Origin: Chloroflexota bacterium
GTDB taxonomy: Bacteria; Chloroflexota; UBA11872
Direction of reading: 5' to 3'
NCBI GenBank assembly: GCA_965198285.1
Contig: OZ240251.1
Coordinates: 821,752 to 885,751, forward strand
DNA length: 64,000 nucleotides
In this document: positions 71 through 14,463 of the stretch, piece by piece
Numbering within the stretch: the stretch's first letter is position 1
Layout of the letters: each line of letters opens with the position of its first letter
Position numbers and translations under genes: made by a program
Notes under the pieces: model-generated
The model's database searches: none
Told to the model about the DNA's origin: nothing
Seen by the model: the letters and a program-made list of their open reading frames with translations, nothing else

Positions 71-1456
71 TCAGGCACGCTCCGACTGGTCCGTGGCTGG
101 AGTGGTGGCCGGGTCCGGCGCGCCGTCACCGTAGGCGTAGTCCCCGTAGTACTCGGTGGTGACCCGCCGCTGGGCGGCATTGATGACCACGCCCAGGAGC
201 ACGACGTTGGTGTTCAGCAGCGCTTCCCGTGCCCGCAGCAGCGGCTTGGGTCGCGTGACGCCGGCCTGCGCGACCAGCAGCGCGGCGCCGCCCGCCGCCG
301 CCAGGATGATCGGGTCCGACACGCCCAGCACTGGCGGGCTGTCGACGATCACGATGTCGGCCAGCCCGGAGAGCTCCTCCAGGACGTCGCGCATCCGAGC
401 GGAGGCCAAGAGTTCGGCGGCGTTCGGGGGCGACGCGCCCGCCGGAACGAGCGAAACGTTCTGGAAGGCCGTGGACCGCAGCGTTGCGCGCGCGTCCGCC
501 TCGCGGTTCACCAGCAGGCTGGTCAGGCCACGCGTGTTTCGCAGCTCGAACAGCCGGTGTAGATGCGGCCGCCGCAGGTCGGCATCCACGAGAATCACCC
601 GTCGGTCTGTCTGACCGAATACAACGGCTAGGTTGGCGGCCGTCGTCGACTTGCCTTCGGCCTGGCTGGCGCTCGTGACCAGCAGGCGGACCGGTTCCCG
701 CAGGCCCCACAGGTCGATGCTGGTGCGAATCTTGCGGTAGGCCTCAGCCGCGGGCGGCGGCAGATTGCCCGGAGCCGTCGGCGGGCGGCTCTCGCCAGCT
801 GGCAGCACGCCGACGACGCCCAGCGAGGCAAGCCCCAGCGGCTGCAGGTCGTCAGGCGACTTGACGGTGTCGTCTCGGTGTTCGAGCAACGCGGCGATGG
901 CCGCCGCGGCCAGCAGGCCGGCCAGCACTCCCACAATGGTGTTCAGGACCACTCGCGGCGCCACCGGCTTGGTGGGCAGCGCCGCCGGCTGTGCGATTCG
1001 CAGGGCCTGCGCTCCCCGTTCCGGCGGCAGGAACGGTTGCTGTTGTTCGATGAAGACGCGCGCCACGCTGTTGGCCAGGTCGCGCGAGAGCGCCGGGTCC
1101 GGCGTTTCGGCCCGGACTTCCAGAAGCTGTGTCTGGGCGATCGCCACGCCGTCGAGCAAGTCGTCCAGGTCGGCCGGCGTGATTGCCAGCTCGAGTTCCT
1201 CGGCAACCTGCTCCAACACCACCCGCTGTGTCGCCATGCGGGCATACGTCTTGACGAGTTGCTGGCTCAGCAGCGCGTCGCTGTAAGTCACCGTGCCCGG
1301 CGCGGCCGACTGGTTGACCACGATGGTGGCCGTGGCGCGGTACGTCGGACTAACCGCTCTCGAGACGCCCCAGGCGGCAGCACCGCCGGCCGCAAGGCCG
1401 ATCAGCAGCACCCACCACCAGCGCACGGCGACCGCCGTCAGCCAGCGAGGCTCCAC
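71..1456 (-). CDS. polysaccharide biosynthesis tyrosine autokinase (Wzz-like chain-length determinant fused to BY-kinase ATPase)
   Basis: 461-aa ORF with an N-terminal TM segment. C-terminal Walker A (SASQAEGKSTTAANLA) and VILVDADLRRP block are typical of CpsD/Wzc-type BY-kinases. Confidence 0.8.
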   Translation of the reverse strand: MEPRWLTAVAVRWWWVLLIGLAAGGAAAWGVSRAVSPTYRATATIVVNQSAAPGTVTYSDALLSQQLVKTYARMATQRVVLEQVAEELELAITPADLDDLLDGVAIAQTQLLEVRAETPDPALSRDLANSVARVFIEQQQPFLPPERGAQALRIAQPAALPTKPVAPRVVLNTIVGVLAGLLAAAAIAALLEHRDDTVKSPDDLQPLGLASLGVVGVLPAGESRPPTAPGNLPPPAAEAYRKIRTSIDLWGLREPVRLLVTSASQAEGKSTTAANLAVVFGQTDRRVILVDADLRRPHLHRLFELRNTRGLTSLLVNREADARATLRSTAFQNVSLVPAGASPPNAAELLASARMRDVLEELSGLADIVIVDSPPVLGVSDPIILAAAGGAALLVAQAGVTRPKPLLRAREALLNTNVVLLGVVINAAQRRVTTEYYGDYAYGDGAPDPATTPATDQSERA

Positions 1457-1715
1457 ACCACAACCTTTCGGGAAGAGCTGCGCCCCGCCCGTCAGCTGCG
1501 GCTCGTGCTGAACCTATACCGTAGCCGGACGCTAGGCATGGTCGCGTCCGACCGGTGGCCTGAATAGTAGCGGCGCGGCCTGGAGCGCGGCGGTGCCCTC
1601 ACTGGCCCGGCCCATCCGCGGTGCGCGAATGTCGGCGTAGCTTGACGCCAAGCGTTGGCGCCGATTACACCGTGACAGGCAGTGCGCGCCCGCACGCAAG
1701 GAAGGGCAATCCGAC

Positions 1716-2141
1716 ATGACGCTCTGGACCGGCGATCTGAATTACCTGGCTGTGGTTGTGGCGGCGGTCATCCCCATGGCGCTCGGCATGTGGTGGTACG
1801 CCCCGCGATTCGGTTTGGGCAACATCTGGCTGCGGCTGATCGTCATGACCGAGGAAGAAATTCGCGAGGGCGGTGGCGGGCAGGGACCCGTGATGGGCCT
1901 GATGCTGATCAGCGCCCTGGTGCAGTCCTACGTCCTGGCGCTGCTGGTCAAGATGACCGGCGCGGACGGCTTTGGCGAAGGCGTGGTTCTGGGTATCTGG
2001 CTCCTGGTCGGCGTGATCGCGACGACCAGTCTGGGCGTGTACATGTTTGCCGGCCGTGGGCTGCGTCTCTGGGCGTTCAACAATGCCTATCACCTCGTCA
2101 CGGTCGTGCTGATGGCGGGTCTGCTTGCCGCCTGGGCATAG
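1716..2141 (+). CDS. DUF1761-like small membrane protein
   Basis: 141-aa hydrophobic ORF. The N-terminus (LNYLAVVVAAVIPMALGMWWYAPRFG) resembles the DUF1761 family. Assignment is from memory of the family consensus. Confidence 0.5.
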   Translation: MTLWTGDLNYLAVVVAAVIPMALGMWWYAPRFGLGNIWLRLIVMTEEEIREGGGGQGPVMGLMLISALVQSYVLALLVKMTGADGFGEGVVLGIWLLVGVIATTSLGVYMFAGRGLRLWAFNNAYHLVTVVLMAGLLAAWA

Positions 2142-2234: not shown

Positions 2235-3128
2235 ATGCTTGACCGCCTCCGCTCGTACCGCGACGTAACCCTCTACGGCCTGGCGCTGCTGGCGACCGGC
2301 CTGCTGGCGCTGGCGCCGGCGGGCCTTATCGACGCTGTCGCAGCGCGCGCTGGACGGCTGGTCTATCGGCGCGCGGGCCCCCGTGGCGCGCGGCTGCGCG
2401 CGAACCTGCGGGTGGTGGTGGGACCGGACGCATCGGACTCTGAGATCGAATCGCTGGCCGAAGGCGTGTACGCGGCCTATGGGCAGTACCTGGCGGAGTT
2501 CTTCACCTTGCACTGGCCTGACCTGTGGGGCCGCCGCCGCCGGCTCATCGTGGACGAACGCACGCTGCGGAAGGCCAAGCGTCAGGGGCGCGGCGTGGTG
2601 CTCTTCGGTATCCACGCGGGGAACTGGGATATGGCCGCTTCGGAGTGCGCCCGCCGCTACGGCGCGTTCCACAGCGCCGGGGAATCAGTGGAGCCGGCCT
2701 GGCTGGGAAGGTTGACCAACCGGGTCCGGCGCGGCGCGGGCACCCGGCTCTACGACCCAATGCGCGCGGCGCGTCCCTTGCTGCGCGCCCTGCGAGACGG
2801 CGACATCATCGGTCTCGTCGCCGACCGCCCGGTGGCGGGGCCCGGTGTGGACGTGGAGTTGTGCGGCCGTCCCGCGCGGCTGCCGGTTGGACCCGTCTGG
2901 CTGGCCCTGCGCAACGGCGCGCCGCTGCTGCCCACGGCCATCGAGCGCCAGCCCAACGGCACGGTCTTCGTCGAGTTTTTGGACCAAGTCAAGCTTTCTG
3001 ATCTCAAGCCCAACGCTGAGGGCATCGCCATCGGCGTGCAGCGCATGGCCGACGCGCTCACCCGGCTGATCCGGCGCGGTTACCCGAGTTGGTTCGCGCT
3101 CCAGGAAGTCTGGCCGGACGAAACCTAG
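2235..3128 (+). CDS. lysophospholipid acyltransferase (LpxL/HtrB / PatA-like)
   Basis: 297-aa ORF with the HX4D acyltransferase motif (FGIHAGNWD) and overall LPLAT architecture. Confidence 0.7.
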   Translation: MLDRLRSYRDVTLYGLALLATGLLALAPAGLIDAVAARAGRLVYRRAGPRGARLRANLRVVVGPDASDSEIESLAEGVYAAYGQYLAEFFTLHWPDLWGRRRRLIVDERTLRKAKRQGRGVVLFGIHAGNWDMAASECARRYGAFHSAGESVEPAWLGRLTNRVRRGAGTRLYDPMRAARPLLRALRDGDIIGLVADRPVAGPGVDVELCGRPARLPVGPVWLALRNGAPLLPTAIERQPNGTVFVEFLDQVKLSDLKPNAEGIAIGVQRMADALTRLIRRGYPSWFALQEVWPDET

Positions 3129-3442
3129 CGCCAAGCGATCCGTCGGCCGTCGCTTGCGCTACTCAACCAAGTCCAGCCCAAGCGCGTCGGCTTTAGGGTA
3201 TGGTTGAAACATAACCAGCCACCGCGCGCCGCAGAAAAACCAGTGCGCGCGAACATCGGAAACTGCGCGCCTATCGCCATGTCGAGCTTGCGTGCCTGAT
3301 CCAGGGAGCATTCCCCATCGCTAGTTTCATTGACCTCGGAGTTCGCCAAGACCTCGCCGACGACCTCGCAGATCAGTCCATAATCGATCCCACACCCATC
3401 CAAGCCACCTGCATCCCGCTCCTGGTTGACGGACGTGACGTC

Positions 3443-4693
3443 GTGGGCCAGGCCCGCACCGGATCCGGCAAGACGCTGGCCTACGTGCTTCCGTTGCTGG
3501 CATGCATCGACGCCAGCCGCCGGGAGCAGCAGGCCCTTGTCTTGGGACCAACGCGCGAACTGGTGGAGCAGATCGCGTCGGTTACCGAGCCACTGGCCGC
3601 CCGCCTTGGCGCGCGCGTCGTCCGAATCCTGGGCGGCGTGAGCTACGGCCCGCAACGCAAGGCGCTGGACGCGGGCGCGCAGATCGTGGTGGCCACGCCT
3701 GGCCGGGCACTGGACCTGATCGAAAGCGGCAGCATCCGCACCAAGGCCGTGCGCGTCGTGGTGCTGGACGAAGCCGACATGATGTTCGACATTGGCATGG
3801 CGCCGCAGGTGGAAGCCATCCTGCGGCACCTGCCGGCCGACCGGCAGACCTCGCTGTTCTCGGCCACGGTGCCCGCCTGGGTGCATCGCATTGCGCAGCG
3901 CCACCTCAGCGACCCGCAATGGACCGAACTCGACACCGAGCCTGACGACCTCCCCGACATCGACCATGAGGTCTGGATCGTGTCGGAGGTCGAGCGTCTG
4001 GCGGCCGTGCGGCACATTCTGGACGAATCACGGGGATCGCCGACGATTGTGTTCGGGCGAACCCGGCGTCAGGTGTCCCGCCTGGGCTCACGGCTGAAGG
4101 ATATGGGCCTGCGCGTGGACTCCATTCAGGGGGCGATGCCCCAGAACGCGCGCAGTCGCGTCATCCAACGCCTGCGCACCGCCCAGATCGACGTGCTGGT
4201 CGCCACCAACGTGGCCGCCCGCGGGCTCGACTTCGCCGGTCTGGCCCAGGTCATCAACTACGACGTGCCCGATGACCCAAATCTCTTCACGCACCGCACG
4301 GGCCGCACGGGCCGCATGGGCGGCCTGGGACGCTCGATCACGCTGGTCAGCGGCGCCGACCTGAATGCCCTGCACGCCATCGAGCGCATCCTGGGCAGCA
4401 AGCTGGTACGGCGTATGTGGCGCGATATGGCGGGCGCGAACGGCGCGGCCCATGGCTCGACCAACGGCGCGGCCCATGGCTCGGCCAACGGCCACACGCC
4501 CCGCGACCTGGCGGCCGCCGCAACCGTAGGCCCCGGCGGACACAAGATGCTGCCCGGTGAACGGCTCAGCGCCAACCGGCGTAGTAGCGAGCCGCCGCCG
4601 GCTGAGAGGCAGTCCCCAGCCGCCAACGGACAGTCGGAAAGTCCCCGCCGCCGCAGCCGGAGCAGACGCCGCCGCCCCGTCGGGGCCCGCTAG
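3443..4693 (+). CDS. DEAD-box ATP-dependent RNA helicase (N-terminus probably extends upstream to about 3263-3300 using a non-canonical start)
   Basis: Motifs GQARTGSGKT (I), VLDEADMM (II), SAT (III) and HRTGRTGR (VI), plus an RS-rich tail. The in-frame upstream sequence encodes the Q-motif (FIDLGV...DPTPIQ) but has no ATG/GTG/TTG between the stop at 3212 and 3443. Confidence 0.85.
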   Translation: MGQARTGSGKTLAYVLPLLACIDASRREQQALVLGPTRELVEQIASVTEPLAARLGARVVRILGGVSYGPQRKALDAGAQIVVATPGRALDLIESGSIRTKAVRVVVLDEADMMFDIGMAPQVEAILRHLPADRQTSLFSATVPAWVHRIAQRHLSDPQWTELDTEPDDLPDIDHEVWIVSEVERLAAVRHILDESRGSPTIVFGRTRRQVSRLGSRLKDMGLRVDSIQGAMPQNARSRVIQRLRTAQIDVLVATNVAARGLDFAGLAQVINYDVPDDPNLFTHRTGRTGRMGGLGRSITLVSGADLNALHAIERILGSKLVRRMWRDMAGANGAAHGSTNGAAHGSANGHTPRDLAAAATVGPGGHKMLPGERLSANRRSSEPPPAERQSPAANGQSESPRRRSRSRRRRPVGAR

Positions 4694-4843
4694 GAACCGG
4701 TAGGCGGTCGTCGGTCGCTGGCAGCCAGTCCTCAGTGGTCAGTCCACGCCTCCGCCATCTCTGCGCCGGCAACTGTCGGCTGACTGCCGGCCACGGTCGT
4801 CTGGCCTACAATCCGGCCCCACAGACAAACCCGAGACCCCGCC

Positions 4844-6013
4844 CTGTCTGACGCCCTGCGCGTCGGCCTGATTGCCGAACCGGCCGGCTGGCATCTCGAC
4901 GGCCTCATCGCCGTCTGCGCCCAGCATCCCGAAGTCGGCGAAGTCGCCGTCGCCGACCGCACCGGCCAGGTCGCCGGCGTCTTTCGTCCCATCACCGGGT
5001 CCTCGCCCGATCCCCACTGGCAGGGCCGTACGCACGAGCCTGGCTCCGGCCCGCCGCCCGGCTGGACCAAGTACGGACGCGAAGTCGACACGCCGTCCAT
5101 TCTTGGCGACAAGCTGGTCGCCAGCTTCACCGACCATCGCCGTCTGCTGGACGAATACAAGCCCGACGCGGTCTTGATCACGATGGAACCCCGCAAGATG
5201 CCGCCGGTGCTGATCGACTGCCTGGAAGCCGGCGTGCATGTGTTTCACGAAAAGCCCGCCTGCGGCCGCATCGAGGACTACCGTCGCGTAGTCGAGGCAG
5301 CGCACCGCTCATCCGCCCACCTCTGCGCCGCCTTCAACATGCGCGGCCTCGCCGCGGTCCGCGAAGCCCGCGACGTCGTGCAGAGCGGCGCGCTGGGTCG
5401 GCTGTTCGGCATGCAGGTGCACTACGTGGCTGAACACCCGCGCACCTGGCTCTGGGAAGAACTGGCCGACGGCTGGATGTACGACCGCGACCGCGGCGGC
5501 GGGCATCTCATCTTCCTGGGCTGCCACTACCTGGACCTGATGCGCTACATCACCGGCGCCAACGTGCGCCAGGTGGCCGGGTTCGCCGACAACGTGGGCG
5601 GCGAACCCATCAACGCCGAAGACGCCTACGCCATCAGCCTCAGGTTCGACAACGGCATGGTCGGCACCTTCTCGGGCGGATTCATGACACCGTCGTCACA
5701 GAAGCACGACGGCCTGCAAATCTGGGGCAGCCGCGGCTGGCTGCGCTTCAACCCCGAGGCCGACGACGGTTTCGAGTGGTTCACCCGCGAAGGTACCGGG
5801 GTCACCGCGCCCGAACGCCGGCTCAGCTTCACCGATACCGGCGTGAGCGGCGGGTTCGACCAGTTCAAACACGAGTTCTTCCAGGCCTGCCTGGGCAACG
5901 GCGAACCACCCATCAGCGCCGACGACGCCCTTTGGATGCACGAAACGGCGTGGGCCGCCCGCCGCGCCTCCGACACGGGTCAGACGCAGACGGTCAGCCT
6001 GGGAGGCAAGTAG
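4844..6013 (+). CDS. Gfo/Idh/MocA family oxidoreductase (start uncertain, probably CTG at 4844 or 4856)
   Basis: The track ORF starts at ATG 5174, but the same frame upstream (open from 4784) encodes the conserved N-terminal Rossmann part (LRVGLIAEPAGWH...DAVLITMEP...HVFHEKP). No ATG/GTG/TTG lies in 4784-5173. Confidence 0.7.
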   Translation: MSDALRVGLIAEPAGWHLDGLIAVCAQHPEVGEVAVADRTGQVAGVFRPITGSSPDPHWQGRTHEPGSGPPPGWTKYGREVDTPSILGDKLVASFTDHRRLLDEYKPDAVLITMEPRKMPPVLIDCLEAGVHVFHEKPACGRIEDYRRVVEAAHRSSAHLCAAFNMRGLAAVREARDVVQSGALGRLFGMQVHYVAEHPRTWLWEELADGWMYDRDRGGGHLIFLGCHYLDLMRYITGANVRQVAGFADNVGGEPINAEDAYAISLRFDNGMVGTFSGGFMTPSSQKHDGLQIWGSRGWLRFNPEADDGFEWFTREGTGVTAPERRLSFTDTGVSGGFDQFKHEFFQACLGNGEPPISADDALWMHETAWAARRASDTGQTQTVSLGGK

Positions 6014-6076
6014 CGCCCTCTCCGCACCGGTCACTGGTTTGGGCGGCTGGGCGGACCAACTCCCGAACCTTTGTCC

Positions 6077-6110
6077 TTGACGCTAATAGCGTAGCGCGCT
6101 AACATTCCAA
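6077..6110 (+). promoter_or_regulatory. sigma70-like promoter TTGACG-N17-TAACAT overlapping a perfect 10-bp palindrome TAGCGCGCTA (6092-6101), immediately upstream of higB
   Basis: Read directly: -35 at 6077-6082, -10 at 6100-6105, and the GTG start of higB at 6111 (5-6 nt after the -10, which implies a leaderless mRNA). Confidence 0.4.
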
Positions 6111-6398
6111 GTGATTAGGAGTTTCCGGGACAAGGACACCGAGGCGGTTGCCCAGCGGCGGCACGACCGCAAGTTCTCCCGGGAAATCCAACGTCGCGCT
6201 CAACGAAAGCTGATGATCTTGAACAACGCTGCGAGCCTGAACGACCTGCGCGTACCGCCAGGAAACCGTTTGGAAGCCCTTGCTGGTGACCGGACGGGGC
6301 AATACAGCATCCGCGTCAACGCTCAATGGCGCATCTGCTTTGATTGGGAAGACGGCGACGCCAATGCGGTCGAAATCGTGGACTATCACGGAGGGTGA
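6111..6398 (+). CDS. higB: HigB-family type II toxin (RelE/ParE superfamily mRNA interferase)
   Basis: 95 aa: MIRSFRDKDTE...LNDLRVPPGNRLEALAGDRTGQYSIRVNAQWRICFDWEDGDANAVEIVDYH, matching the HigB 'plasmid maintenance killer' consensus. Confidence 0.85.
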   Translation: MIRSFRDKDTEAVAQRRHDRKFSREIQRRAQRKLMILNNAASLNDLRVPPGNRLEALAGDRTGQYSIRVNAQWRICFDWEDGDANAVEIVDYHGG

Positions 6399-6399
6399 A

Positions 6400-6738
6400 A
6401 TGGCGGATGTAACGAGCTTGCGGATTTCAAGTGCTTCGCCACGTCCAGCCAAGCTTCCTCCCATCCACCCTGGCGAGATCCTGAACGAGGAGTTTCTGCG
6501 TCCGCTCAACCTCAGCCAGTACCGACTGGCGAAGGCCATTGGCGTCGATCCGCGCAGGATTCACGCGATCGTCCACGGCCAGCGGGCCATCACGGCCGAA
6601 ACGTCGTTGCTGCTCGCGCGCTTCTTCGGAAACTCGGCTGCATTTTGGCTGGGCTTGCAGAGTCAGTACGACTTGGAGACCGCCGAAGATCGACTGGCGG
6701 ACCGCCTGGAACAAGTGACGGCATACGCGAGCGGATAG
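6400..6738 (+). CDS. higA: HigA-family HTH antitoxin
   Basis: ATG 1 nt after the higB stop. Carries HPGEILNEEFL...LSQYRLAKAIGV...RIHAIVHGQRAITAETSLLLARFFGNS, an XRE-type HTH typical of HigA. Confidence 0.85.
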   Translation: MADVTSLRISSASPRPAKLPPIHPGEILNEEFLRPLNLSQYRLAKAIGVDPRRIHAIVHGQRAITAETSLLLARFFGNSAAFWLGLQSQYDLETAEDRLADRLEQVTAYASG

Positions 6739-7055
6739 GCTGCGCCGTCACATGGTTCTGGTTGATGGGTGAAGGCGTGAGCGGTCGAGCCCCGTGGCGC
6801 CTTTCCGAGTTGCGGGCCGACAATCCGAAGCGACCGGAGACGCTAGCGCTCCTCAGGATCTTGGCCCTGGGCAATCGTCAAGTCGCTGCCGGCCAGGTGC
6901 AGCCCGCCGCTGATGTCGTGGCCAAGCTGCGGGAGCGGCGACCGGACGGCTAATCGGTCTCGAGATTGCTTACTCGAGCTAGGCCTTCTCGATAGCGCAC
7001 TTGGGGACGCTGACTCCTTGCCGTCTCCCGATCAGTACGACCCTCGTTCAGATCC

Positions 7056-7391
7056 TCATTTCGCCAGGCGCGGCGAAACCGACGCTCCGGCGGGCTGGTA
7101 GCGCCGAACGCTGATTTCGCCGGCTCGGGCGCGCATCTGTGCGGCGTCGTACCAGGCTTGCATTTCCAGTAGCAGGTCCATTCGCACGTCAAAGGCCTTC
7201 TCGATGCGTAGCGCCATTTCGGGCGAGAGCGAGGCACGTCCGTTCAGCAGGTCAGAGAGCGTCGCCCGCCGCACGCCAAGAATCTCGGCCGTCTTCGTCA
7301 CGCTGAGTCCCAGCTCCTCGATGACCTCCGTACGGACGAAGTCGCCGGGATGCGCAGGGGTCATGCTCACGCCCCGGCGGCCGGCAGTCAT
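7056..7391 (-). CDS. orphan HigA/VapI-family HTH antitoxin (may start at internal M, 7364)
   Basis: HPGDFVRTEVIEELGLSVTKTAEILGVRRATLSDLLNGRASLSPEMALRIEKAF matches the HigA-family antidote. No HigB-like ORF lies on either side. Confidence 0.7.
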   Translation of the reverse strand: MTAGRRGVSMTPAHPGDFVRTEVIEELGLSVTKTAEILGVRRATLSDLLNGRASLSPEMALRIEKAFDVRMDLLLEMQAWYDAAQMRARAGEISVRRYQPAGASVSPRLAK

Positions 7392-7458
7392 TGGCGATAG
7401 TCCCCAACGTCCGAAGGTCGGGATCTAGGATTCTCCTCATGCTGCCGCGGACGAGACT

Positions 7459-8229
7459 TCAATTCGTCGCCCGCCGGTATTCGTACGTCGCCGCCCCCAC
7501 CAGCACCAGCGTCGTCGCCAGCAACACCCAAATGCCCGGCAGGATGCTGTCCCAAACCCAGCCTTCGATGATCACGGCGCGCACGGCCACCATGATGTAC
7601 TCGATGGGATTCAGGCCAACGGCCACCTGGAACCAGCCGGTCAGCAGGTCGCGCGGCATGAAGGCCGAGGTCAGAAACGCCAGCGGCATGAAGAGCAGCC
7701 AGCTATTCACCGTCACCTGCACGCTGCGGGTGCGCATGGCGACGATCAGGCCTACGCAGCCCATCGCCACGCCCAGCAATGTGGTGCCCACGATGACGCC
7801 CAGCACGCCGAGGATTCCGCCTTCGAAGCGCACGCCGATGGCCGTGGCCACCAGGATGATCGCCAGCACCTGCGCCATGGCCCGCGTGCCCCCAATCAGC
7901 AGCGTGCCCAGCAGGATCGAAAAGCGGTTCACGGGCGACAGCAGTAGCTTGTCCACGTAGCCCGACATCATGTCCGTCAGCAGCACCATGGCCATGTCGC
8001 TACCGCTGAAGACCACCGCCATCACGATCACCATGGCGGCCAGGAAGGCCTGGTAGTCGTCGGCCGGGAACCCCGGCAGCGCCGTGATCCCGCGCAGCGG
8101 CTCGCCAAAGAACAGGAACATGAACGCCGACGACAGCACCGCCGCCACGATCATCCACGGCTGCGCCAGCCACGTCTTCAGGTTCCGAACGTAAATGAAA
8201 TAGCTCTCTCGCAGTACAAGCATTGGCAT
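7459..8229 (-). CDS. ABC-2 type transporter permease
   Basis: Multi-TM 256-aa protein. Start taken at MPMLVL with an ATGA overlap to the upstream ATPase stop. Confidence 0.75.
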   Translation of the reverse strand: MPMLVLRESYFIYVRNLKTWLAQPWMIVAAVLSSAFMFLFFGEPLRGITALPGFPADDYQAFLAAMVIVMAVVFSGSDMAMVLLTDMMSGYVDKLLLSPVNRFSILLGTLLIGGTRAMAQVLAIILVATAIGVRFEGGILGVLGVIVGTTLLGVAMGCVGLIVAMRTRSVQVTVNSWLLFMPLAFLTSAFMPRDLLTGWFQVAVGLNPIEYIMVAVRAVIIEGWVWDSILPGIWVLLATTLVLVGAATYEYRRATN

Positions 8230-9254
8230 TACCTCCGGTTGACGCCCATCCACTGGCTCCACATGCGGTCTTCGGCGTCGCCATCGGCGTCTGAGTCGCG
8301 AATCTGGCGGCCGGTGTGCTGGAGGAAGACGTCGTCCAGCGATGGGCGGGTGATGGACAGGTTGGCGATGGACAGGTTGGCGCCGCGAAACGCGTCCATG
8401 ATTGCCGGGGCTGCGGCGCCGCCGTCGCTGACGGTGGCGGTTAGACCGCCGGCCGCGATGTCCGCCTGCTGGACTCCGGGCAGGGCGCGCACGGCCGTCA
8501 GGGCCGCGGCCACGCGGTCGTCCGCCGATTCGTTTGAGTCAAAGGCCACGTGCACGATGTCCCCGCCCACGCTCGCCTTCAGCTCGGCGGGGGAGCCTCC
8601 GGCCACCAGGCGTCCGTGGTCGATGATGGCCAGCCGCCGGCAGAGCCGGTCGGCCTCGTCCATGTGCTGCGTCGTCAGGAAGATCGTCACGCCCTGAGCA
8701 TTGAGATGTTCCAGGTGCTCCCAAACGGCAATCCGGCTTTGCGGATCCAGGCCCGTGGTCGGTTCGTCCAGAAACAGGACGCCCGGGTTGTGCATCAGCG
8801 CGCCGGCCAGGTCGATCCGCCGCCGCATCCCGCCCGAGTAGGACCCAACGCGGCGGTCGGCGACGGACGTCAGCCCCACCAGATCCAGCAGCTCCGCGGC
8901 CCGGGCGCGCGCCTGGGCGCGCGACAGCCCGTAGAGCAATCCTTGCAATTCCAGAAAGTCACGTCCCTTCGAGAGGTCGTCCAGTCCCACCTCTTGCAGC
9001 GCCACGCCAATGGCTTGCCGCACCGCTTTCGGATCGCGGGTTACGTCCAGGCCGGCCACCTCCACGCGACCGGAGCTCTTGGTCAGCAGCGTGGCCAGAA
9101 TCTTGATGGTGGTGGTCTTGCCCGCGCCGTTCGGTCCCAGGAAGCCGAAGAACTCGCCGCGCTCGACCTCAAAGCTGATCCCGTCCACGGCGCGCACGCC
9201 GCCCGGATAGGTCTTGGCCAGCCCTTCCACCAGGACCGCTGGACCGTTCGTCAT
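8229..9254 (-). CDS. ABC transporter ATP-binding protein (DrrA-like, with C-terminal DUF4162-type extension)
   Basis: Walker A GPNGAGKTT, signature YSGGMRRR, Walker B LFLDEPTTGLD. Start set at MTNGPAVLVEGL rather than the 63-codon upstream extension of the track ORF. Confidence 0.8.
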   Translation of the reverse strand: MTNGPAVLVEGLAKTYPGGVRAVDGISFEVERGEFFGFLGPNGAGKTTTIKILATLLTKSSGRVEVAGLDVTRDPKAVRQAIGVALQEVGLDDLSKGRDFLELQGLLYGLSRAQARARAAELLDLVGLTSVADRRVGSYSGGMRRRIDLAGALMHNPGVLFLDEPTTGLDPQSRIAVWEHLEHLNAQGVTIFLTTQHMDEADRLCRRLAIIDHGRLVAGGSPAELKASVGGDIVHVAFDSNESADDRVAAALTAVRALPGVQQADIAAGGLTATVSDGGAAAPAIMDAFRGANLSIANLSITRPSLDDVFLQHTGRQIRDSDADGDAEDRMWSQWMGVNRR

Positions 9255-9701
9255 CACGTGCTCCTGTCGTGTCTCCAGTCGGCGTCCGCCCTGGGCCGGC
9301 CTCCGCTCCCCGACCGGTAGTCCATCACGAAGTCGATCTGTTTGGGAGGGGATAGCGCTCTCCACGCCAATTGGCGACCCCTGAATCGAGGAAGTTGCGA
9401 TGGCTTGACCAAGTCGCGCTACCATTATTGGGCTAGGAACCAACTAATGGTCCTACCCTCTCATGATGTAACATGGCAGCCATAGAGTCGTGTTCTGGCC
9501 AACGCCGAACGAGCTCCAACACCGCAGCTAATCTACCTTGGATACGTAAATCCGGATTGTTGCGTCGGCGAACCAAACCGTCGGCCTTGATACCTTTGGC
9601 AACCCATCGACTCTCACTTTAAGTGCTTGTGACGATCAGAACTAACGTGTGCTTTTCGCGCCGACCGACATCTCATAATCTGGCCCATATTCCAGCCAAC
9701 C

Positions 9702-10301
9702 CTATCTGGGAATAGTCGACTGGCCGACCTGCTGCTCGCCCTCGTGTTCGGAGTTTAAAGACTGTAGAAATCTAGTGACCGGCAAGATACTTTCTTGGCC
9801 GACATCCCAGCCAAGTTTCTCGGCACGCGAACAGATTGTGTCTGCCGTTAGAGGTTGCGGATCAGCGTCAAGAACATAGGAAACCTTCGCAGCTAACGAA
9901 AGCTGATTGTAATCTAAATCTCCTGACGAAGTAATTCGGCTAGCGGCTTGCCCAATCTTCGTCGCCGAATTCGTGTTTTTCTCGTTAAGGGTACAAGCGA
10001 GAGAGGCACCCTCGTTCGTAAGACTGTAGTCATACCGAATGCGACCATCGTGAGACGACTTACCAGAGTCGAATCTGATTTCATCCTCTTTAACAAAACC
10101 GAGTTGGACAAGCAAGCTTATCGCAGAGTCTATCTCCGGAGCGAATGGTCCGTAAAAATGCGGTCTGAACGAACAGTAATTTTGGCCGACGATTTTCTGT
10201 ACAAAGTACGCTCGCTTTTGAAGAAGCGTGCGCCCTTCAATCTTCCGATTCCAATTTTCAAGGAGAAGCAGTAAAAACTCAGCGGTGCTCAACTCCATCA
10301 A
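9702..10301 (-). CDS. Panacea (DUF4065, SocA/GepA-like) domain protein - putative antitoxin-like partner
   Basis: 199 aa in low-GC DNA. TLLQKRAYFVQKIVGQ...FRPHFYGPFAPEI resembles the LQKLLYYAQ / W.YGPV.PEVY core of DUF4065 (recalled consensus). ATGA overlap with the upstream HD gene. Confidence 0.5.
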   Translation of the reverse strand: MMELSTAEFLLLLLENWNRKIEGRTLLQKRAYFVQKIVGQNYCSFRPHFYGPFAPEIDSAISLLVQLGFVKEDEIRFDSGKSSHDGRIRYDYSLTNEGASLACTLNEKNTNSATKIGQAASRITSSGDLDYNQLSLAAKVSYVLDADPQPLTADTICSRAEKLGWDVGQESILPVTRFLQSLNSEHEGEQQVGQSTIPR

Positions 10302-11696
10302 CTAGCCTCCTGAGTATCCTGCCTCGCACCGAGGACATCGTCCATTATACCCTCAATCTCCTCCTGCAGGCCAATTCTTCCTGCGTCCGAATCGTAGGCA
10401 GCGTCAAGATTGTCCGTTGGGGCGTAGATGGATACAAACTCGCGTGCAAGGGATCTACTGAGTGATTGAAATATCATTGATTCATCGCGAAACTCGGTGG
10501 GGGCAGAACCAGCGTGAATGACCAGGAGATTGCCCTCGTCATTCGATTCGGATTTCTTCAGTCCCCAATTGAGCGAGTGCTTTGAAAAGATTACATCATC
10601 CGGTTCAATTGAAATGGCCCTTGCCACAGCTTGCTCCACTCGACGCTTGAGCTGAGCATTGATTTGCGATGTTAGTGCAGTTCGTGACTTAGCGGGCATC
10701 GCATCAAGCTTTCGATGGAAGATTCGCTTAAATAGCCTTCTTTGCTTGAGTCTGGTCATCAGGCGAGAGAACTTTGTCGTGTCTTCTGCATCTTCAGCAT
10801 ACTGAAGCAGGCGAAGGTCATCCCACATAGATAGTTCAATTGCATAGTCCATGGAATCTCTGAAAGTGAACGCGTCTTGGATTGGTTTGAGTTCGTCGTG
10901 AGTTACAGCGAGAAGAAGGGCTCTGATTAACATATGATCCGTGCACAGCCGCACGGGATGAGAATATACCTGAGCGTGCATATAATACCGTGCCTGTACG
11001 AATTGCTCAGTAGCTTCAATCCCACCCGAGCTGATCCCCAAGTATGACTCTTGGCTCTCGGGATACCGGCGAATCGTGCGATGCAGGCGGTCGATATCAT
11101 ACTGCCCATACTTTACGCCGCAAAAGTGTGCATCGCGGAGGAGATAGTCTTGCTTGTCGGCGTCTATCGGTCCTGTAATTGCTTGCGAAAGAAGGTGGTT
11201 GGTCGTTCTCTTAGTGAGCACGTGAGATATCTCTTGGAGTTCATGGGGCGAAATATGATTGGATAGTGAGCTGTCTTCTTCAATGAGATCAGAGAGCAAT
11301 CTTCTCGTGCGCATCATCGGGAATCGAAGTTCCTGAGAGGGTTTCCGAGATCTCCAGCAAGGCTTGTTCCGCGAGATGCGAGAACGGGCCGTGGCCGATG
11401 TCGTGAAGTATGGCGACAAGACCGAGCAAGCGGCGTTCATCGTCGTTCATGTTTGTGGCGGCGGCAATACGTGACGCGATATGGGCGACTCCGAGTGTGT
11501 GATCGAAGCGAGTGTGAGTAGCGCCAGGGTAGACGAGGGACGTAAAGGCAAGCTGGCGAATACGGCGGAGTCGCTGCAAAAGGGGTGTATCGATGATGCG
11601 CCACTGCAAAGGTTCGAGGTGTATATAGCCGTGTACTGGATCGCGAACGTCGTTGGGTGGCAAGTTTGCCCATCGCTGTATTATTGTGATGCTCAT
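10298..11696 (-). pseudogene. SAMHD1/dGTPase-like HD-domain dNTP triphosphohydrolase, interrupted by a +1 frameshift near 11290-11330
   Basis: N-terminal ORF (11696..11289) has DPVHGYIHLEP...LLQRLRRIRQLA...THTRFDHTLGV...LHDIGHGPFSH. The downstream frame (..10298) has ITGPIDADKQDYLLRDAHFCGV. Both are SAMHD1 signature blocks, but they sit in two frames that overlap by about 40 nt. Confidence 0.75.
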
Positions 11697-12054
11697 GGTA
11701 ATGTAACACGTCGGTGTTTGGCTGGGGTTTCGCGTGATAGATTGACCTCGTGGGATGTTGATGCGGGTGCCTCTGGTAACGGGTGGAGACGCGATTGCAA
11801 CTTCGCCGACAGACTCAGCGCCTCCCTGAGCGGTGATCGTGAGATGAAATCTGAAGCAGCGAAGTGTCGTTCGTTACGTCTCGGGACGGCTCGAAACTCA
11901 TCTTTCCTAGGATGAAGTCGCTAGAGTTGGCTGCCACCATGCGGCTCCCAGCGTCCAATTGCTGCTTAAGGCACCACTCATCAATAGCCCACTCTGCTAC
12001 CGTGCCCCGCTAGAAAAACCTCGGCGCCGGGCTCACGACGCCGACGAACGGGAG

Positions 12055-13569
12055 ATGAGGTCCGCCGTGGCAAACGTGATTCATGAGCCGGCGCGTGAGG
12101 TGCCGGTGTTGCATGACACTGACGTGTTGGTGGCGGGGGCGGGGATTTCGGGGCTGTTCGCGGCGCTGGAGGCTGCCGCGGCAGGCGCGCGGACCACGCT
12201 GGTGGACGAGTATTCGGCCGTCGGCGGCAACTATGGCCCGGGTCTGGGCTCGCGCCATGACCTGTGGCAGGCCCCGCAGCAACACGACCGTGGGCTGGGC
12301 GGCCAGGTGGGCGACTTCCTGGATCGGCTGGATGCGCGCGGCGGCATCAAGACCTTCGACTTCATCAGCGGCGGCGACAACGTGCCGTGGCGTTGGGATG
12401 GCATGGCCCACATTCCCGTCATTGACCGCAATGAGTTTCAGCGGCTGGCCCTGCAGCGTCTGCGAGACCTGGACATCGCCCTGCTGCTTTCCACCACCGT
12501 GGCCGGAGCGATTGTGGAGGACGCCCAGGTCGGCGGCGTGGTTTTCGAAACCGGCGAAGGCCGGCGCGCAATTACGGCCAAGGTCGTCATTGACACCACC
12601 GGCGAAGCCGACGTGGCCGCCGCGGCCGGCGCCCAGACCGAGGATGCCCACGCCAGCGCCGAGGCTGGGTTCGGTCTGTTCTTCCGAGTAGAGGACGTGA
12701 ACTGGGAGGTCTACGAGGAGTTTCGCGCGGCCGAACGCGACAAGCCGCTGACCGCCGAGGAACAGCACTGGGTGGACGAGGTGCTATTCGTCGCCTTGGA
12801 GCGAGTCTGGGCCAACTACCCCCGCGAAATCCTGCCCTTCATCATGTCCGATTGGGAGTCCGGCCGCTTCAAGTACGTGGCCGCCATTCCAGGAGGCGCC
12901 CACGCCTACAAGATTCCGTTTGCCACGCACGACCAGGACGTGACCACCATTGAGACGCGTTGGCCGGCCCGCACCTTATCGGCGTTGAACGCCATGCAGC
13001 ACTCCACCATAGAGGCCGCGGCCCGGCTGCACGCCTACGACACCATCGACTTCTACAGCCGCCACGTGCCCGGGTTCCAGAACGCCCGCGTCAGCCAGCT
13101 GGCGCCCTACATGGGCACGCGCTGGAGCCGCACGATCGTGCCCGACTACACCCTCAGCCGCGATGACATCGTTGGCGAGCGAAAGTTCGACGATGTCGTC
13201 CACGTCCTGACCACGCTCTACCGCTACGACGACGAAGCGCAGAGCGGCGGCCGCACCCGCCAGCTCGTCAACCTGCGGGAGCGCGAAGAGGGCCACCACT
13301 TCGACATGCCGCTGGGCCAGTTCCTGCCGCAGGGCGTGGAGGGCATGCTGGCGGCGGGACGCTCCATTGGCCGGGACCGCACGGCCAGCCTGCGCTGGCG
13401 CTGGATCGCCAAGGTCACGGGCGGCGTTGCCGGAATGGCGGCGGCTCGGGCCGTGGCCGAAGACGTAGCGCCGCGCTACGTTGACATCCGCGCGTTGCAG
13501 CGCGCCCTGGTTGCGGCCGGCTACTACTTGGGCGAGCCGCGGCGCCTGGCGGACCTGGGCGTCGCTTAA
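12055..13569 (+). CDS. FAD-dependent oxidoreductase (FAD_oxidored/HI0933-like family)
   Basis: Dinucleotide-binding motif VLVAGAGISGLFAALEAAAAGARTTLVDE near the N-terminus. Start chosen at MRSAVAN (the track ORF begins 32 codons earlier in low-GC DNA). Confidence 0.7.
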   Translation: MRSAVANVIHEPAREVPVLHDTDVLVAGAGISGLFAALEAAAAGARTTLVDEYSAVGGNYGPGLGSRHDLWQAPQQHDRGLGGQVGDFLDRLDARGGIKTFDFISGGDNVPWRWDGMAHIPVIDRNEFQRLALQRLRDLDIALLLSTTVAGAIVEDAQVGGVVFETGEGRRAITAKVVIDTTGEADVAAAAGAQTEDAHASAEAGFGLFFRVEDVNWEVYEEFRAAERDKPLTAEEQHWVDEVLFVALERVWANYPREILPFIMSDWESGRFKYVAAIPGGAHAYKIPFATHDQDVTTIETRWPARTLSALNAMQHSTIEAAARLHAYDTIDFYSRHVPGFQNARVSQLAPYMGTRWSRTIVPDYTLSRDDIVGERKFDDVVHVLTTLYRYDDEAQSGGRTRQLVNLREREEGHHFDMPLGQFLPQGVEGMLAAGRSIGRDRTASLRWRWIAKVTGGVAGMAAARAVAEDVAPRYVDIRALQRALVAAGYYLGEPRRLADLGVA

Positions 13570-13572
13570 AGC

Positions 13573-13601
13573 CCGAAGCGCCGGTAAACCCGGCGCTTCG
13601 G
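13573..13601. terminator. bidirectional intrinsic-terminator-like hairpin between convergent genes (12-bp perfect stem CCGAAGCGCCGG / CCGGCGCTTCGG, 5-nt loop)
   Basis: Read directly. On the minus-strand transcript the stem is followed by GCUUUAAG. Confidence 0.45.
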
Positions 13602-13643
13602 ATCAGATGCAGGTCGGGTAATCAGCCCGACGGGCGTGGTCGT

Positions 13644-14003
13644 CTAGTAGCGTCCGCCGCCGCCGCCGCCGCCGTAGCCGCCGCCACCGCCGCCGTAGCC
13701 ACCGCCACCACCGCCGTAGCCACCGCCACCACCGCCGTAGCCGCCGCCACCGCCGCGGGGCGCCCGAGGGCGCGCCTTGTTCACCGTGAGCATGCGGCCG
13801 CCCATGTTGTTGCCGTTCATGCCCTCGATCAACGCCTCGGCCTCTTCATCGCTGGCCATCTCGATGAAGCCGAAGCCTCGCGACCGGCCAGTCTCGCGGT
13901 CGATGATGATCGTGCACGACGTGAGCTCGCCGTATTGCGAAGCCTGCTCACGTAGTTCGTCCTCGGTCGTCGTATACGGCAGGTTGCCGACATAGATGTT
14001 CAT
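13644..14003 (-). CDS. RRM-type RNA-binding protein with glycine-rich (GGYGGGG)n tail
   Basis: RNP2 IYVGNL and RNP1 RGFGFIEM motifs. The C-terminus is 5x GGGGYGG. Start at MNIYVGNLP (14003), not the track's upstream M. Confidence 0.85.
   Translation of the reverse strand: MNIYVGNLPYTTTEDELREQASQYGELTSCTIIIDRETGRSRGFGFIEMASDEEAEALIEGMNGNNMGGRMLTVNKARPRAPRGGGGGYGGGGGGYGGGGGGYGGGGGGYGGGGGGGRY
13650..13745. repeat. tandem about 21-nt repeats (GCCGCCACCGCCGCCGTAGCC-like) encoding the Gly/Tyr tail of the RRM protein
   Basis: Direct repetition visible in the sequence. Confidence 0.6.
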
Positions 14004-14463
14004 GCAAAAATCGTTCCTGGACGCCGCCGCCGTGGACGTGCGTCCGTCTACACCCGCCAACGTGCGGGAGGTCCAGACCATCCGTCATTCATCAGAACGC
14101 CGCAGTGAACCCAGTGTCGGAAAGGCCAGTTCAGGTATGCCGTTCGAGAGTCGAAAGGCTTGGCGTGAACGAGAAACCTCGCAGACGGCGGCAGACGGAA
14201 GATTCAATACCAGGGCACCGACAGGAGCTTATCACGTAGCGACCCCAGAAAACGTCGCTCCTCAAGAAGACCCGACGGCCTGAGAGATCACGCCAGTCGC
14301 CGGGGACTCGCATCGCCGTGCGGACGCCAACCGGAGTCCAGAGCTCCCGAGACGTTCCAACCCTCGGGCCCGAGCACGATCGCCCTCCACTGGCGACTGA
14401 CTACTGGCCACTGCCCCGTGCGGTAGGGTTCGCGTGCTCAGCAGCCAAAAGAGCGGATCCCCG

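Follow-up and report, generated by a model that had tools for sequence, protein, structure and literature searches.

A strain-variable, low-GC cassette in an uncultured Chloroflexota genome carries a frameshifted gene for a putative SAMHD1-like dNTPase and an intact YwgA-family partner gene

The window analysed here, a stretch of 64,000 nucleotides of Chloroflexota DNA, contains a low-GC islet with just two genes, which are both encoded on the minus strand (Table 1). The islet is bordered at one end by the conserved promoter side of a DrrA-type ABC gene and at the other by the beginning of an FAD oxidoreductase gene. Its GC content in 300-nt windows is 0.47-0.55 across about 9350-11900, against 0.63-0.73 (about 0.66) on both sides. 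A preliminary description had proposed a two-gene islet at this position, and the GC windows, open reading frames and Pfam labels of the flanking genes bear it out; the toxin-antitoxin genes that it saw nearby, higB, higA and a lone HigA-like gene, are all present. The islet is slightly wider than the 9445-11958 first given, as blastn against two sister genomes (L181 and L182) showed homology ending at 9317 (95.9% identity) and restarting at 12057 (98.8%).

Table 1. Positions of the cassette, its parts and the neighbouring genes in the window.
Feature	Position	Strand	Basis or remark
Low-GC cassette (islet)	9318..12056 (2,739 bp)	.	Alignment to sister genomes L181/L182, and GC
Leader and presumed promoter region of cassette	11697..12056	-	Upstream of HD gene
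Putative SAMHD1/EF1143-type HD (d)NTP triphosphohydrolase gene, frameshifted	10298..11696	-	Pfam HD and HD_assoc_2; 465 aa when repaired
1-bp insertion, coding-strand G in CTCTCT[G]ATCTC	11290..11290	-	Absent in sister contig L001
Stop/start overlap TTGATG	10296..10301	-	HD stop TGA overlaps partner ATG (or TTG) start
YwgA-family partner, intact ORF	9702..10298	-	198 aa from ATG; 199 aa from TTG at 10301
Cassette 3' non-coding spacer	9318..9701	-	No ORF >=50 aa wholly inside
DrrA-type ABC ATPase	8232-9254	-	Pfam label; ABC-2 permease next
FAD oxidoreductase	from about 12055	+	Pfam label
higB	6111-6398		Pfam label
higA	6400-6738		Pfam label
Lone HigA-like HTH_3 gene	7056-7391		Pfam label

At the same site in the two sister genomes, the islet is replaced by 3,022 bp of unrelated cargo with GmrSD_N, HEPN and MerR/DUF433 genes. 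Because these sisters carry other genes there between flanks that are 96-99% identical, the site is a variable accessory-gene hotspot. The evidence supports a foreign origin of the cassette and a hotspot whose cargo in sister strains is of defence type, and we consider the islet a horizontally acquired two-gene cassette. The islet contains no integrase, transposase or Rfam element. No convincing terminal repeats were found, the best inverted pair being 26 nt with 73% complementarity, and promoter and terminator motifs occur at chance level. The same holds for its non-coding parts, neither of which gave an Rfam match: the leader has no recognised element and promoter-like sites at chance level, and the spacer lacks convincing terminal repeats. 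Neither the drop in GC nor the gene pair is a product of chance; more than 250 species genomes carry this pair.

The first gene of the pair matches the Pfam families HD (PF01966; 2e-10, 40.6-41.2 bits, cut-off 22) and HD_assoc_2 (PF19276; 1e-17, 63.6-64.6 bits, cut-off 23.1). Among known structures its product matches 2hek (4e-43) and EF1143 (2o6i, 1e-41), as well as SAMHD1 chains (about 1e-28) and a fungal SAMHD1 (9mr6, 4e-30). The metal-binding H...HD...D residues and the catalytic H-E dyad are present (H66, H98-D99, H130-E131 and D178) and, together with D183 and R187-D188, are invariant in 69-70 of the 70 partner-linked homologs. Domains, structural matches and catalytic residues place this gene in the SAMHD1/EF1143 class, in agreement with the SAMHD1-like identity first suggested, and all four HD motifs quoted at the time are found. 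Sequence comparison supports its product being an HD (d)NTP triphosphohydrolase of that type, in the YdhJ/COG1078 class. The enzyme gave no full-length match to models of anti-phage dGTPases, which it matches in the HD motif region only: the PADLOC dGTPase profile was matched at positions 47-128 of 395, and the NCBIfam anti-phage dGTPase model NF041026 (the type of Tal et al. 2022) scored 28.3 bits against a cut-off of 400.

The HD gene has no intact open reading frame in this genome. A single inserted base just past H130-E131 is followed at once by a TGA stop in the shifted frame, and the gene falls into an ORF of 135 amino acids with the HD motif (11696..11289) and a frame with HD_assoc_2 (11440..10298). 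A 99.6% identical sister contig (L001) does not have the extra base and reads through as ...HEKIALYLIEED... in this region. Programmed frameshifting was rejected as an explanation, there being no slippery heptamer at the site, no extra base in L001 and a single frame in the HD homologs. Contig L001 has lesions of its own, independent of that in the window: at 11042 TAC has become the stop codon TAA, and at 10729 there is an additional A. Because the enzyme gene is frameshifted, the module is probably dead in this strain and an orphan antitoxin-like gene is left behind. We think it somewhat doubtful, yet well within reach, that the insertion is an assembly or sequencing error and that the module of the window is really intact and functional. 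Just one base is involved, L001 does not share it, the contigs come from long-read metagenome assemblies, and the extra G creates a GATC site. However, the insertion lies outside any homopolymer run, the disruptive changes in L001 are separate ones, and at other loci the HD gene is often disrupted by large deletions.

The partner consists of an N-terminal part of about 125 amino acids, homologous to the Panacea domain, and a helical C-terminal part, and as a whole it resembles the C-terminal domain of DarG. The preliminary description had compared it with Panacea (DUF4065), quoting the stretches LLQKRAYFVQ and FYGPFAPEI, which are present. Kinship at the level of the superfamily holds, through profile-profile comparison and an intermediate sequence, but a match to the Pfam model does not: the 199-aa protein fails PF13274 even at E <= 1, a result that had been named in advance as speaking against the comparison, and so do 20/20 diverse family members sampled. 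A distant HD-linked relative (L154) reaches 21.8 bits, under the cut-off of 25.7. The intermediate is QIO25564.1, a PF13274 member (29.8 bits, above cut-off) that matches the window partner in tblastn (1e-5, 38% identity), the partner-family profile in hhalign (98.5%, E 3e-15, 112 columns), the partner-family HMM (53.6 bits) and, by BLASTP, 60/82 members of the family.

Searches of Pfam, PHROGs and NCBIfam with the partner gave no DUF4065 match and, as the sole lead, weak matches to DarG. The DarG equivalog model scored 23 bits (cut-off 250), with matches beginning at about model position 170, and 19/20 partner-family members match its C-terminal part. The 198-aa partner has the features of the C-terminal, DarT-binding domain of DarG; the N-terminal macrodomain (ADP-ribosyl glycohydrolase) is absent, and the adjacent gene encodes an HD phosphohydrolase rather than DarT (DUF4433). 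The family also aligns with the Bacillaceae YwgA family (hhalign of A2 against A4, 99.15%, E 4e-19, 149 columns), and many of its members bear the JGI label 'uncharacterized protein YwgA'. Its most conserved motif, QK..YF...H.YGP.S, is common to the protein-binding Panacea and DarG domains. No nucleotidyltransferase match was obtained for the partner, the fold being winged-helix plus helical, and a search of viral folds in BFVD returned partial winged-helix matches only, with no named Panacea protein. Since the pI of the family is near neutral (median 6.75), a DNA-mimic role like that of the DarG C-terminal domain fits poorly. Taken together, these comparisons support placing the partner in a superfamily with Panacea, the DarG C-terminal domain and YwgA.

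The HD gene and the partner gene overlap, as first described, and the junction reads TTGATG rather than ATGA, giving an overlap of 1 nt with the ATG start and of 4 nt with the TTG start. Overlaps of 4, 10, 11 or 14 nt prevail in 80 homologous loci. Because stop and start overlap, we suggest that the two genes are translationally coupled. The expectation that the pair would be conserved as neighbours in other genomes proved correct in bacteria and archaea alike: an HD gene is adjacent on the same strand in 75/80 partner-family loci, a full-length partner is found in 24/25 loci reached through an HD gene of this clade, and in one case (L024) the two are fused in frame. The distribution across phyla is patchy. 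Compared with its flanks, the pair has the higher AT content in 53/78 loci, and in none is it GC-richer by more than 0.05. Its immediate neighbours are highly variable and include just a few defence genes. A conserved third gene was considered and rejected, as 129 Pfam families occur among 133 immediate neighbours and the islet keeps no trace of the HigA-like HTH_3 gene located after the pair in its closest relatives. The pair is nearly absent from phages and plasmids, and tblastn of the partner and of L154 against phage genomes gave no match.

At about 12 loci, isolate genomes included, an intact partner stands next to an HD gene that is either disrupted or deleted, in some cases through large deletions. 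The reverse, a broken partner next to an intact HD gene, was not seen in the loci reached through the HD gene. This asymmetry is suggestive only and not significant (Fisher p about 0.1), and the genome set is biased because it was found through the partner.

The pairing itself is already known from computational cataloguing and is very widespread. It had been thought undescribed, which is not the case: Kurata et al. 2022 (PNAS, PMC8832971) list in their Dataset S1 five PanAT pairs predicted to have an HD (YdhJ) protein as toxin (cluster T34), and the pair is also an operon of the ywfO-ywgA type, as found in Bacillaceae. A 2026 survey of dGTPases makes no mention of partners of this kind, and the literature searched contained no functional study on YwgA, YwfO or DarG with HD.

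We suggest that the partner most likely binds and restrains the dNTPase. The partner shares homology with the Panacea antitoxin domain and, along its entire length, with the domain of DarG that binds DarT. By translational coupling it would be made in step with the enzyme, and it may bind the enzyme directly and check its nucleotide-depleting activity in the style of type II neutralisation. If phage infection or stress led to loss or displacement of the partner, the freed enzyme could collapse the dNTP pool, and replication of both cell and phage DNA would stop. We count in favour of this account the identities of the two proteins, their linkage with overlapping stop and start, the gene order, the L024 fusion, the hotspot setting, the AT-richness, the variable neighbours and the pattern of HD decay, together with the precedent of CloA and CloB (PMC12265719) and the catalogued HD(YdhJ)+PanA pairs (PMC8832971). 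Against it we count the Bacillaceae pair, with its 60-nt gap and conserved, housekeeping-looking context, as well as the few defence neighbours, the near absence from phages and plasmids, the weak statistics of the decay asymmetry and the near-neutral pI. To our knowledge, moreover, ywgA is not essential in B. subtilis. The account as a whole, in which an acquired cassette carries a coupled partner that restrains an HD dNTPase and the module is broken here, stands in our judgement at an even balance.

Enzymes of the SAMHD1 class, such as SAMHD1 and EF1143, are self-limited by allosteric activation, and because of this limit they need not be toxic. The pair could instead be a housekeeping enzyme of the nucleotide pool with a dedicated non-inhibitory subunit (regulatory, activating or targeting), such as an allosteric modulator or nucleic-acid adaptor, that has no part in toxin-antitoxin function or defence, in which case the HD enzyme would trim or sanitise dNTP/NTP pools; we think this unlikely. 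The Bacillaceae context is that of a conserved core region, with pta, lipoate ligase, tautomerase, M50 peptidase and YwhD, and Bacillaceae and their relatives have more than 2,200 YwgA-family proteins. The minimal genome Syn3.0 keeps a YwfO-like HD gene (PMC4993169). The scarcity of defence neighbours agrees with such a role, and the invariant catalytic residues indicate that selection keeps the enzyme active. However, the sole full-length structural relative of the partner is a toxin-binding antitoxin domain, and the window pair belongs to cargo that differs from strain to strain, defence genes taking its place in sisters. Consistent AT-richness, patchy occurrence across phyla and repeated HD decay beside an intact partner likewise argue against a housekeeping function.

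The winged-helix matches of the partner could also point to a DNA-binding transcription factor that autoregulates the operon and does not act on the enzyme directly, which we regard as very improbable. These matches span about 80-95 residues, whereas that to the DarG C-terminal domain spans 165 with a far higher score; the most conserved motif is the one common to protein-binding domains; a gene that lies downstream of the enzyme gene and overlaps its end is better placed for stoichiometric co-production than for a regulatory role; and the known in-frame fusion to the enzyme fits poorly with such a role. Membership of the pair among canonical PanAT type II systems, with a PF13274 (PanA) partner and a growth-arresting HD toxin, is suggested by the five listed pairs and by homology of the partner family to a PF13274-positive protein, but it is scarcely credible given that the window protein and all sampled members fail that model, that the partner is about 70 residues longer than a Panacea domain with the two-part DarG C-terminal architecture, and that the catalogued HD-type pairs are all marked 'notest'.

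Depleting dNTPs is well established as a means of antiviral defence. For the way in which bacteria render SAMHD1-like dNTPases harmless until they are called for, the sole worked example is Clover, which uses a small-molecule signal. If a YwgA-type partner is a protein neutraliser related to the DarG and Panacea antitoxins, two well-studied fields, immunity by dNTP depletion and promiscuous antitoxin domains, would be linked, and hundreds of species, the model organism B. subtilis among them, would have a function for this gene pair; the question would be open to direct test by simple genetics. We put forward, tentatively and with the balance somewhat against it, that YwgA-family proteins may act on SAMHD1-like dNTPases as dedicated protein inhibitors or as infection sensors and so make up a third branch of the Panacea/DarG C-terminal domain superfamily, and that HD-YwgA pairs, B. 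subtilis ywfO-ywgA included, may form a very widespread toxin-antitoxin-like or abortive-infection module of bacteria and archaea that depletes dNTPs. The window itself matters less, with its enzyme gene seemingly broken and the pairing already in a published dataset.

The window pair resembles the T34 pairs in having a SAMHD1-like HD gene upstream of a Panacea-type gene, with stop and start overlapping or nearly so. The T34 pairs, from Ammonifex, Desulfofundulus and Caldicellulosiruptor, have the predicted toxin gene before the antitoxin gene, with a cited gap of -4 and a range of -17 to +23 nt, and are listed without discussion, 'notest' being the entry under LabReport (PMC8832971). Their partners were picked out by passing PF13274, unlike that of the window and its family. 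Desulfofundulus is shared between that list and one of our loci (L027, Desulfofundulus australicus). The T34 pairs may be orthologous to the window pair. In the Bacillus-type ywfO-ywgA arrangement, the gene for a 433-aa protein with HD and HD_assoc_2 precedes that for a small homolog of the window partner (hhalign 99.2%), which NCBI names 'YwgA family protein', and the Bacillaceae YwgA and window partner families both match the C-terminal part of the DarG model. In Siminovitchia (L179 and L180), the YwgA gene lies directly downstream of a YwfO-like HD gene. The Bacillaceae partners differ from that of the window in being about 169 aa long, in following a gap of about 60 nt and in lying in a conserved core neighbourhood instead of a variable islet.

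Like darT and darG, the window genes are ordered enzyme first and partner second, and the partner matches the DarT-binding inhibitory domain of DarG (PDB 7YK3) over its whole length in profile and predicted fold. In contrast to DarG, the partner has no macrodomain and is not consistently acidic, so that DNA mimicry is doubtful, and the enzyme is a putative HD phosphohydrolase in place of the DNA ADP-ribosyltransferase DarT (DUF4433). With the single-gene anti-phage dGTPases and human SAMHD1, the window enzyme has in common the HD triphosphohydrolase fold and its catalytic motifs; unlike those dGTPases, it falls in the SAMHD1/EF1143 branch, which carries HD_assoc_2, and comes with an obligatory partner gene. 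A parallel in organisation to what we propose is Clover, an anti-phage system made up of a two-gene operon in which the toxic dNTPase effector CloA, highly toxic without its operon partner, is restrained by CloB (PMC12265719). CloB is a Pol-beta-type nucleotidyltransferase that makes the inhibitory nucleotide p3diT, whereas the window partner has neither that character nor an enzyme fold and would act by binding the enzyme itself.

The segment between the ABC genes and the oxidoreductase is as poor in GC as the preliminary description had stated (0.47-0.55 over ~9350-11900, versus 0.63-0.73 on both sides, by sliding-window GC), and it carries just two genes, both on the minus strand. The flanking genes, and a higBA pair with an orphan higA just past the ABC operon, were likewise correctly described, and the latter three genes are kept in sister genomes. 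The SAMHD1/dGTPase motifs reported for the first gene (the HD gene) are all present, split over two of its frames. Homologs and gene callers start the partner at the ATG at 10298, making it a 198-aa protein. The two genes do overlap, but not by ATGA, a small misreading: the junction reads TTGATG, and the HD stop TGA therefore overlaps the partner start.

Coordinates of features in the window and in loci fetched for comparison
Feature	Sequence	Coordinates	Strand	Description
HD gene, first ORF	window	11696..11289	minus	135 aa; DPVHGYIHLEP, RFDHTLGV, LHDIGHGPFSH
HD gene, second frame	window	11440..10298	minus	IDADKQDYLLRDAHFCGV and remainder of protein
Partner ORF	window	10301..9702	minus	199 aa from 10301
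DrrA-type ABC ATPase with ABC-2 permease	window			one flank of islet
FAD oxidoreductase	window			other flank of islet
higB	window	6111-6398		HigB-like toxin, 95 aa
higA	window	6400-6738		HigA partner, 112 aa
Lone HigA-like HTH_3 gene	window	7056-7391		separate from higBA
RRM-type RNA-binding protein	window	13644-14081	minus	long glycine-rich (GGGGY repeat) tail; conserved in Chloroflexota MAGs
Extra sequence, ~2.2 kb	L001, sister contig	4770-7134		three small ORFs between ABC ATPase and permease genes
Alternative cargo	L181 and L182, sister genomes	10948-13969 in both		GmrSD_N (DUF262), HEPN_RiboL-PSP, MerR/DUF433 genes
HD-partner fusion	L024, Acidobacteriaceae MAG	2612-4567		in frame, 651 aa
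DUF7680 gene	L090, metagenome contig	7066-7509		overlaps HD gene start
DUF7680 gene	L091, metagenome contig	1316-1759		overlaps HD gene start
Bridging Panacea gene	L183, Haloarcula plasmid CP050019.1	3205-4390		overlaps end of TrmB-family regulator gene, not an HD gene

The locus is also present, at 99.6% identity, in another metagenome contig (L001), from which a single base is missing: the G of CTCTCT[G]ATCTC at window 11290. Removing this G fuses both frames into a 465-aa protein reading ...DDAHEKIALYLIEED..., which can be aligned to homologs of ~461 aa without any change of frame. The insertion lies outside any homopolymer, which favours a real lesion over an assembly error, and programmed frameshifting is unlikely because there is no slippery site. 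The HD gene of L001 appears damaged at other places (TAC changed to the stop TAA at window 11042, one additional A at 10729), and the partner protein is identical in the two contigs. Judged from gene coordinates, L001 has its extra sequence where the ATPase and permease genes of the window adjoin (~8223-8232); it may be an insertion splitting the ABC operon.

Once repaired, the HD protein matches Pfam HD and HD_assoc_2, both above threshold, and its best solved relatives are an Aquifex hypothetical protein (2hek, E 4e-43), the E. faecalis dNTPase EF1143, an HD domain protein (2o6i, 1e-41), a phosphohydrolase (2q14, 2.6e-34), fungal SAMHD1 (9mr6, 4e-30) and many entries of human SAMHD1 (about 1e-28). 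Membership of the Dgt-type anti-phage dGTPase families was rejected, those models matching the HD motif only. Across 70 partner-linked homologs, H66, H98, D99, H102, H107, H130, E131, D178, D180, D183, Y184, R187 and D188 vary little or not at all, a conservation that argues for an active enzyme under purifying selection.

The proposed resemblance of the partner to Panacea stands at the level of the superfamily, and strict PF13274 membership, the test put forward with it, does not. Pfam returned no match to the partner at all, with no PF13274 even at E <= 1, and PF13274 was found in 0/20 diverse relatives. The C-terminal, non-macrodomain part of DarG models does match the partner (PADLOC, 6e-6; NCBIfam, 3e-5) and 19/20 of those relatives (best 4.5e-8). 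A confident AlphaFold2 model (pLDDT 84.8, pTM 0.80, 17-sequence alignment) predicts a winged helix in the N-terminal half and helices in the C-terminal half. The bridge to Panacea is one of three haloarchaeal genes found by tblastn in PLSDB plasmids with the window partner: QIO25564.1 (E 1e-5, 38% identity to residues 20-97), annotated as a 'DUF4065 domain-containing protein', passes PF13274 (29.8 bits, cut-off 25.7) and aligns with the partner-family profile at 98.5% probability (E 3e-15, 112 columns, partner residues 8-125). Its pairwise BLASTP E-value with the window partner is 2e-13, BLASTP also links it to 60/82 family members, and it scores 53.6 bits with the family HMM. L154, HD-linked and distantly related, scores 21.8 bits with PF13274, below the same cut-off. 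Homology of DUF4065 proteins to the DarG C-terminal domain has been stated independently (PMC13621843, 2026). On its plasmid the bridging gene adjoins a TrmB-family gene, and the same domain is therefore used with a different neighbour.

Many partner-family members are labelled 'uncharacterized protein YwgA' at JGI, and a shorter relative downstream of another HD clade leads to >2,200 'YwgA family protein' entries at NCBI, mostly from Bacillaceae. Alignment of the two families has a probability of 99.15%, and Bacillaceae YwgA also matches the DarG model over its C-terminal part. YwgA is a member of the Panacea / DarG C-terminal domain superfamily. In Siminovitchia, the YwgA gene follows a 433-aa HD + HD_assoc_2 gene at a distance of 60 nt, with pta, lipoate ligase, tautomerase, M50 peptidase and YwhD as neighbours. 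A literature search for functional studies of YwgA or YwfO found none.

An exhaustive HMM search for the partner yielded 1,989 clusters at 50% identity (242 below 1e-30), nearly all stand-alone proteins of ~185 aa. In a single scan of species-representative genomes, 253 loci were confirmed, distributed over Acidobacteriota, Nitrospirota, Bacillota, Verrucomicrobiota, Planctomycetota, Chloroflexota, Desulfobacterota and methanogenic or Methanoperedens archaea. The expectation that the pair would be conserved as neighbours was borne out: a SAMHD1-like gene is adjacent on the same strand in 75/80 fetched loci, upstream in 70 and downstream in 5, all archaeal; the genes most often meet in a 4-nt overlap (32 loci). 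The five loci scored as lacking it in a first pass include four with <= ~600 nt of upstream sequence; a later, more sensitive search found contig-truncated HD fragments in L018 and L060, and only one locus of the 80 (L052) has upstream room yet truly lacks the gene. Reciprocally, metagenomes were scanned with the HD alignment: wherever downstream sequence was available, HD genes of the partner-linked clade always had a full-length partner behind them (24 loci), L125 being the one possible exception. In SAMHD1-like clades further away the partner is mostly missing. The partner comes first in L041, L065, L068, L081 and L082 (Methanoperedens, Methanomicrobiales and uncultured archaea) and in L131, an unassigned metagenome contig. 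The DUF7680 gene, seen in one sub-clade, might belong to the module as a third component. The single in-frame fusion, if not an assembly artefact, would be a 'Rosetta stone' hint of physical interaction.

The pair has an accessory character. Flanking proteins of the window cluster with Chloroflexota MAG proteins at 90% identity, and two sister genomes, the 3.97-Mb circular contig L181 and L182, in each of which the flanks on the two sides match at 95.9% and 98.8% identity, hold a different, likewise low-GC cargo of 3,022 bp between the equivalents of window 9317 and 12057, in place of the HD-partner pair at 9318-12056. The site, between two divergently transcribed core genes, is therefore a strain-variable hotspot that swaps accessory genes of defence- or toxin-antitoxin-like look. 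Relative to the sequence on either side, the pair is AT-rich in nearly all genomes, irrespective of phylum and host GC: the mean difference is -0.079 over 78 loci from many phyla (L002-L087), below -0.05 in 53/78 and above +0.05 in 0/78, and the closest relatives of the window pair have ~49% GC in hosts of 65-68%. Immediate neighbours are highly diverse (129 Pfam families among 133 ORFs), only a few being R-M, DrmD/SNF2, STAND or IS genes. The pair is nearly absent from phage genomes and plasmids, and viral contigs yielded 5 loci in 2.9 million.

Decay of the HD gene recurs beside a partner ORF that is intact every time. Besides the 1-bp insertion in the window, we found frameshifts in metagenome contigs (L006, L090/L091), two frameshifts in the isolate Desulfofundulus australicus DSM 11792 (L027), in-frame stops in a Bryobacteraceae MAG (L063) and metagenome contigs L088/L089, an internal deletion in a MAG (L031), loss of the N-terminal half in the isolate Syntrophomonas zehnderi OL-4 (L040) and a Verrucomicrobiae MAG (L053), loss of the C-terminal part in metagenome contigs L092/L093, only the N-terminal ~107 aa in a Clostridiaceae MAG (L028), a small remnant in the isolate S. 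wolfei subsp. methylbutyratica (L046), and complete absence in L052, a Bryobacteraceae MAG. Among HD-ascertained loci, 0 had an intact HD gene with a broken partner. This is the order expected if prior loss of the partner were harmful. The asymmetry is not statistically significant, however (Fisher p of ~0.1), and the genome set was partner-ascertained.

The copy of the widespread HD-dNTPase + YwgA module in the window is probably inactivated. We suggest that the partner would directly bind and neutralise the dNTPase, the likeliest mechanism and one to which we give an even chance of being right. The main rival, in which the partner would regulate a housekeeping enzyme as a non-inhibitory subunit, we consider possible but rather doubtful. 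The window copy itself is an ordinary, apparently broken instance; the HD/YwgA family is an attractive lead that is directly testable.

The pairing had been called undescribed, and this does not hold. Among the 'Predicted PanAT pairs (1268)' in Dataset S1 of Kurata et al. 2022 are five whose predicted toxin is an 'HD domain-containing protein' (toxin cluster T34, CDD YdhJ), in Ammonifex thiophilus, Desulfofundulus thermocisternus and three Caldicellulosiruptor species, in toxin to antitoxin order with gaps of -4, 0, -17, -17 and +23; their LabReport field reads 'notest' and the main text does not discuss them (PMC8832971). In the Clover system, described in a preprint, a dNTPase effector that is highly toxic alone is restrained by its operon partner (PMC12265719). 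Therefore, neither the concept nor the pairing is new, and what we add is how widespread and how tight the linkage is, the partner's full-length DarG C-terminal domain architecture, its identification as the YwgA family, largely missed by PF13274-based searches, and the evidence for a hotspot. Clover differs in that the restraint by its operon partner runs through a nucleotide signal (PMC12265719).
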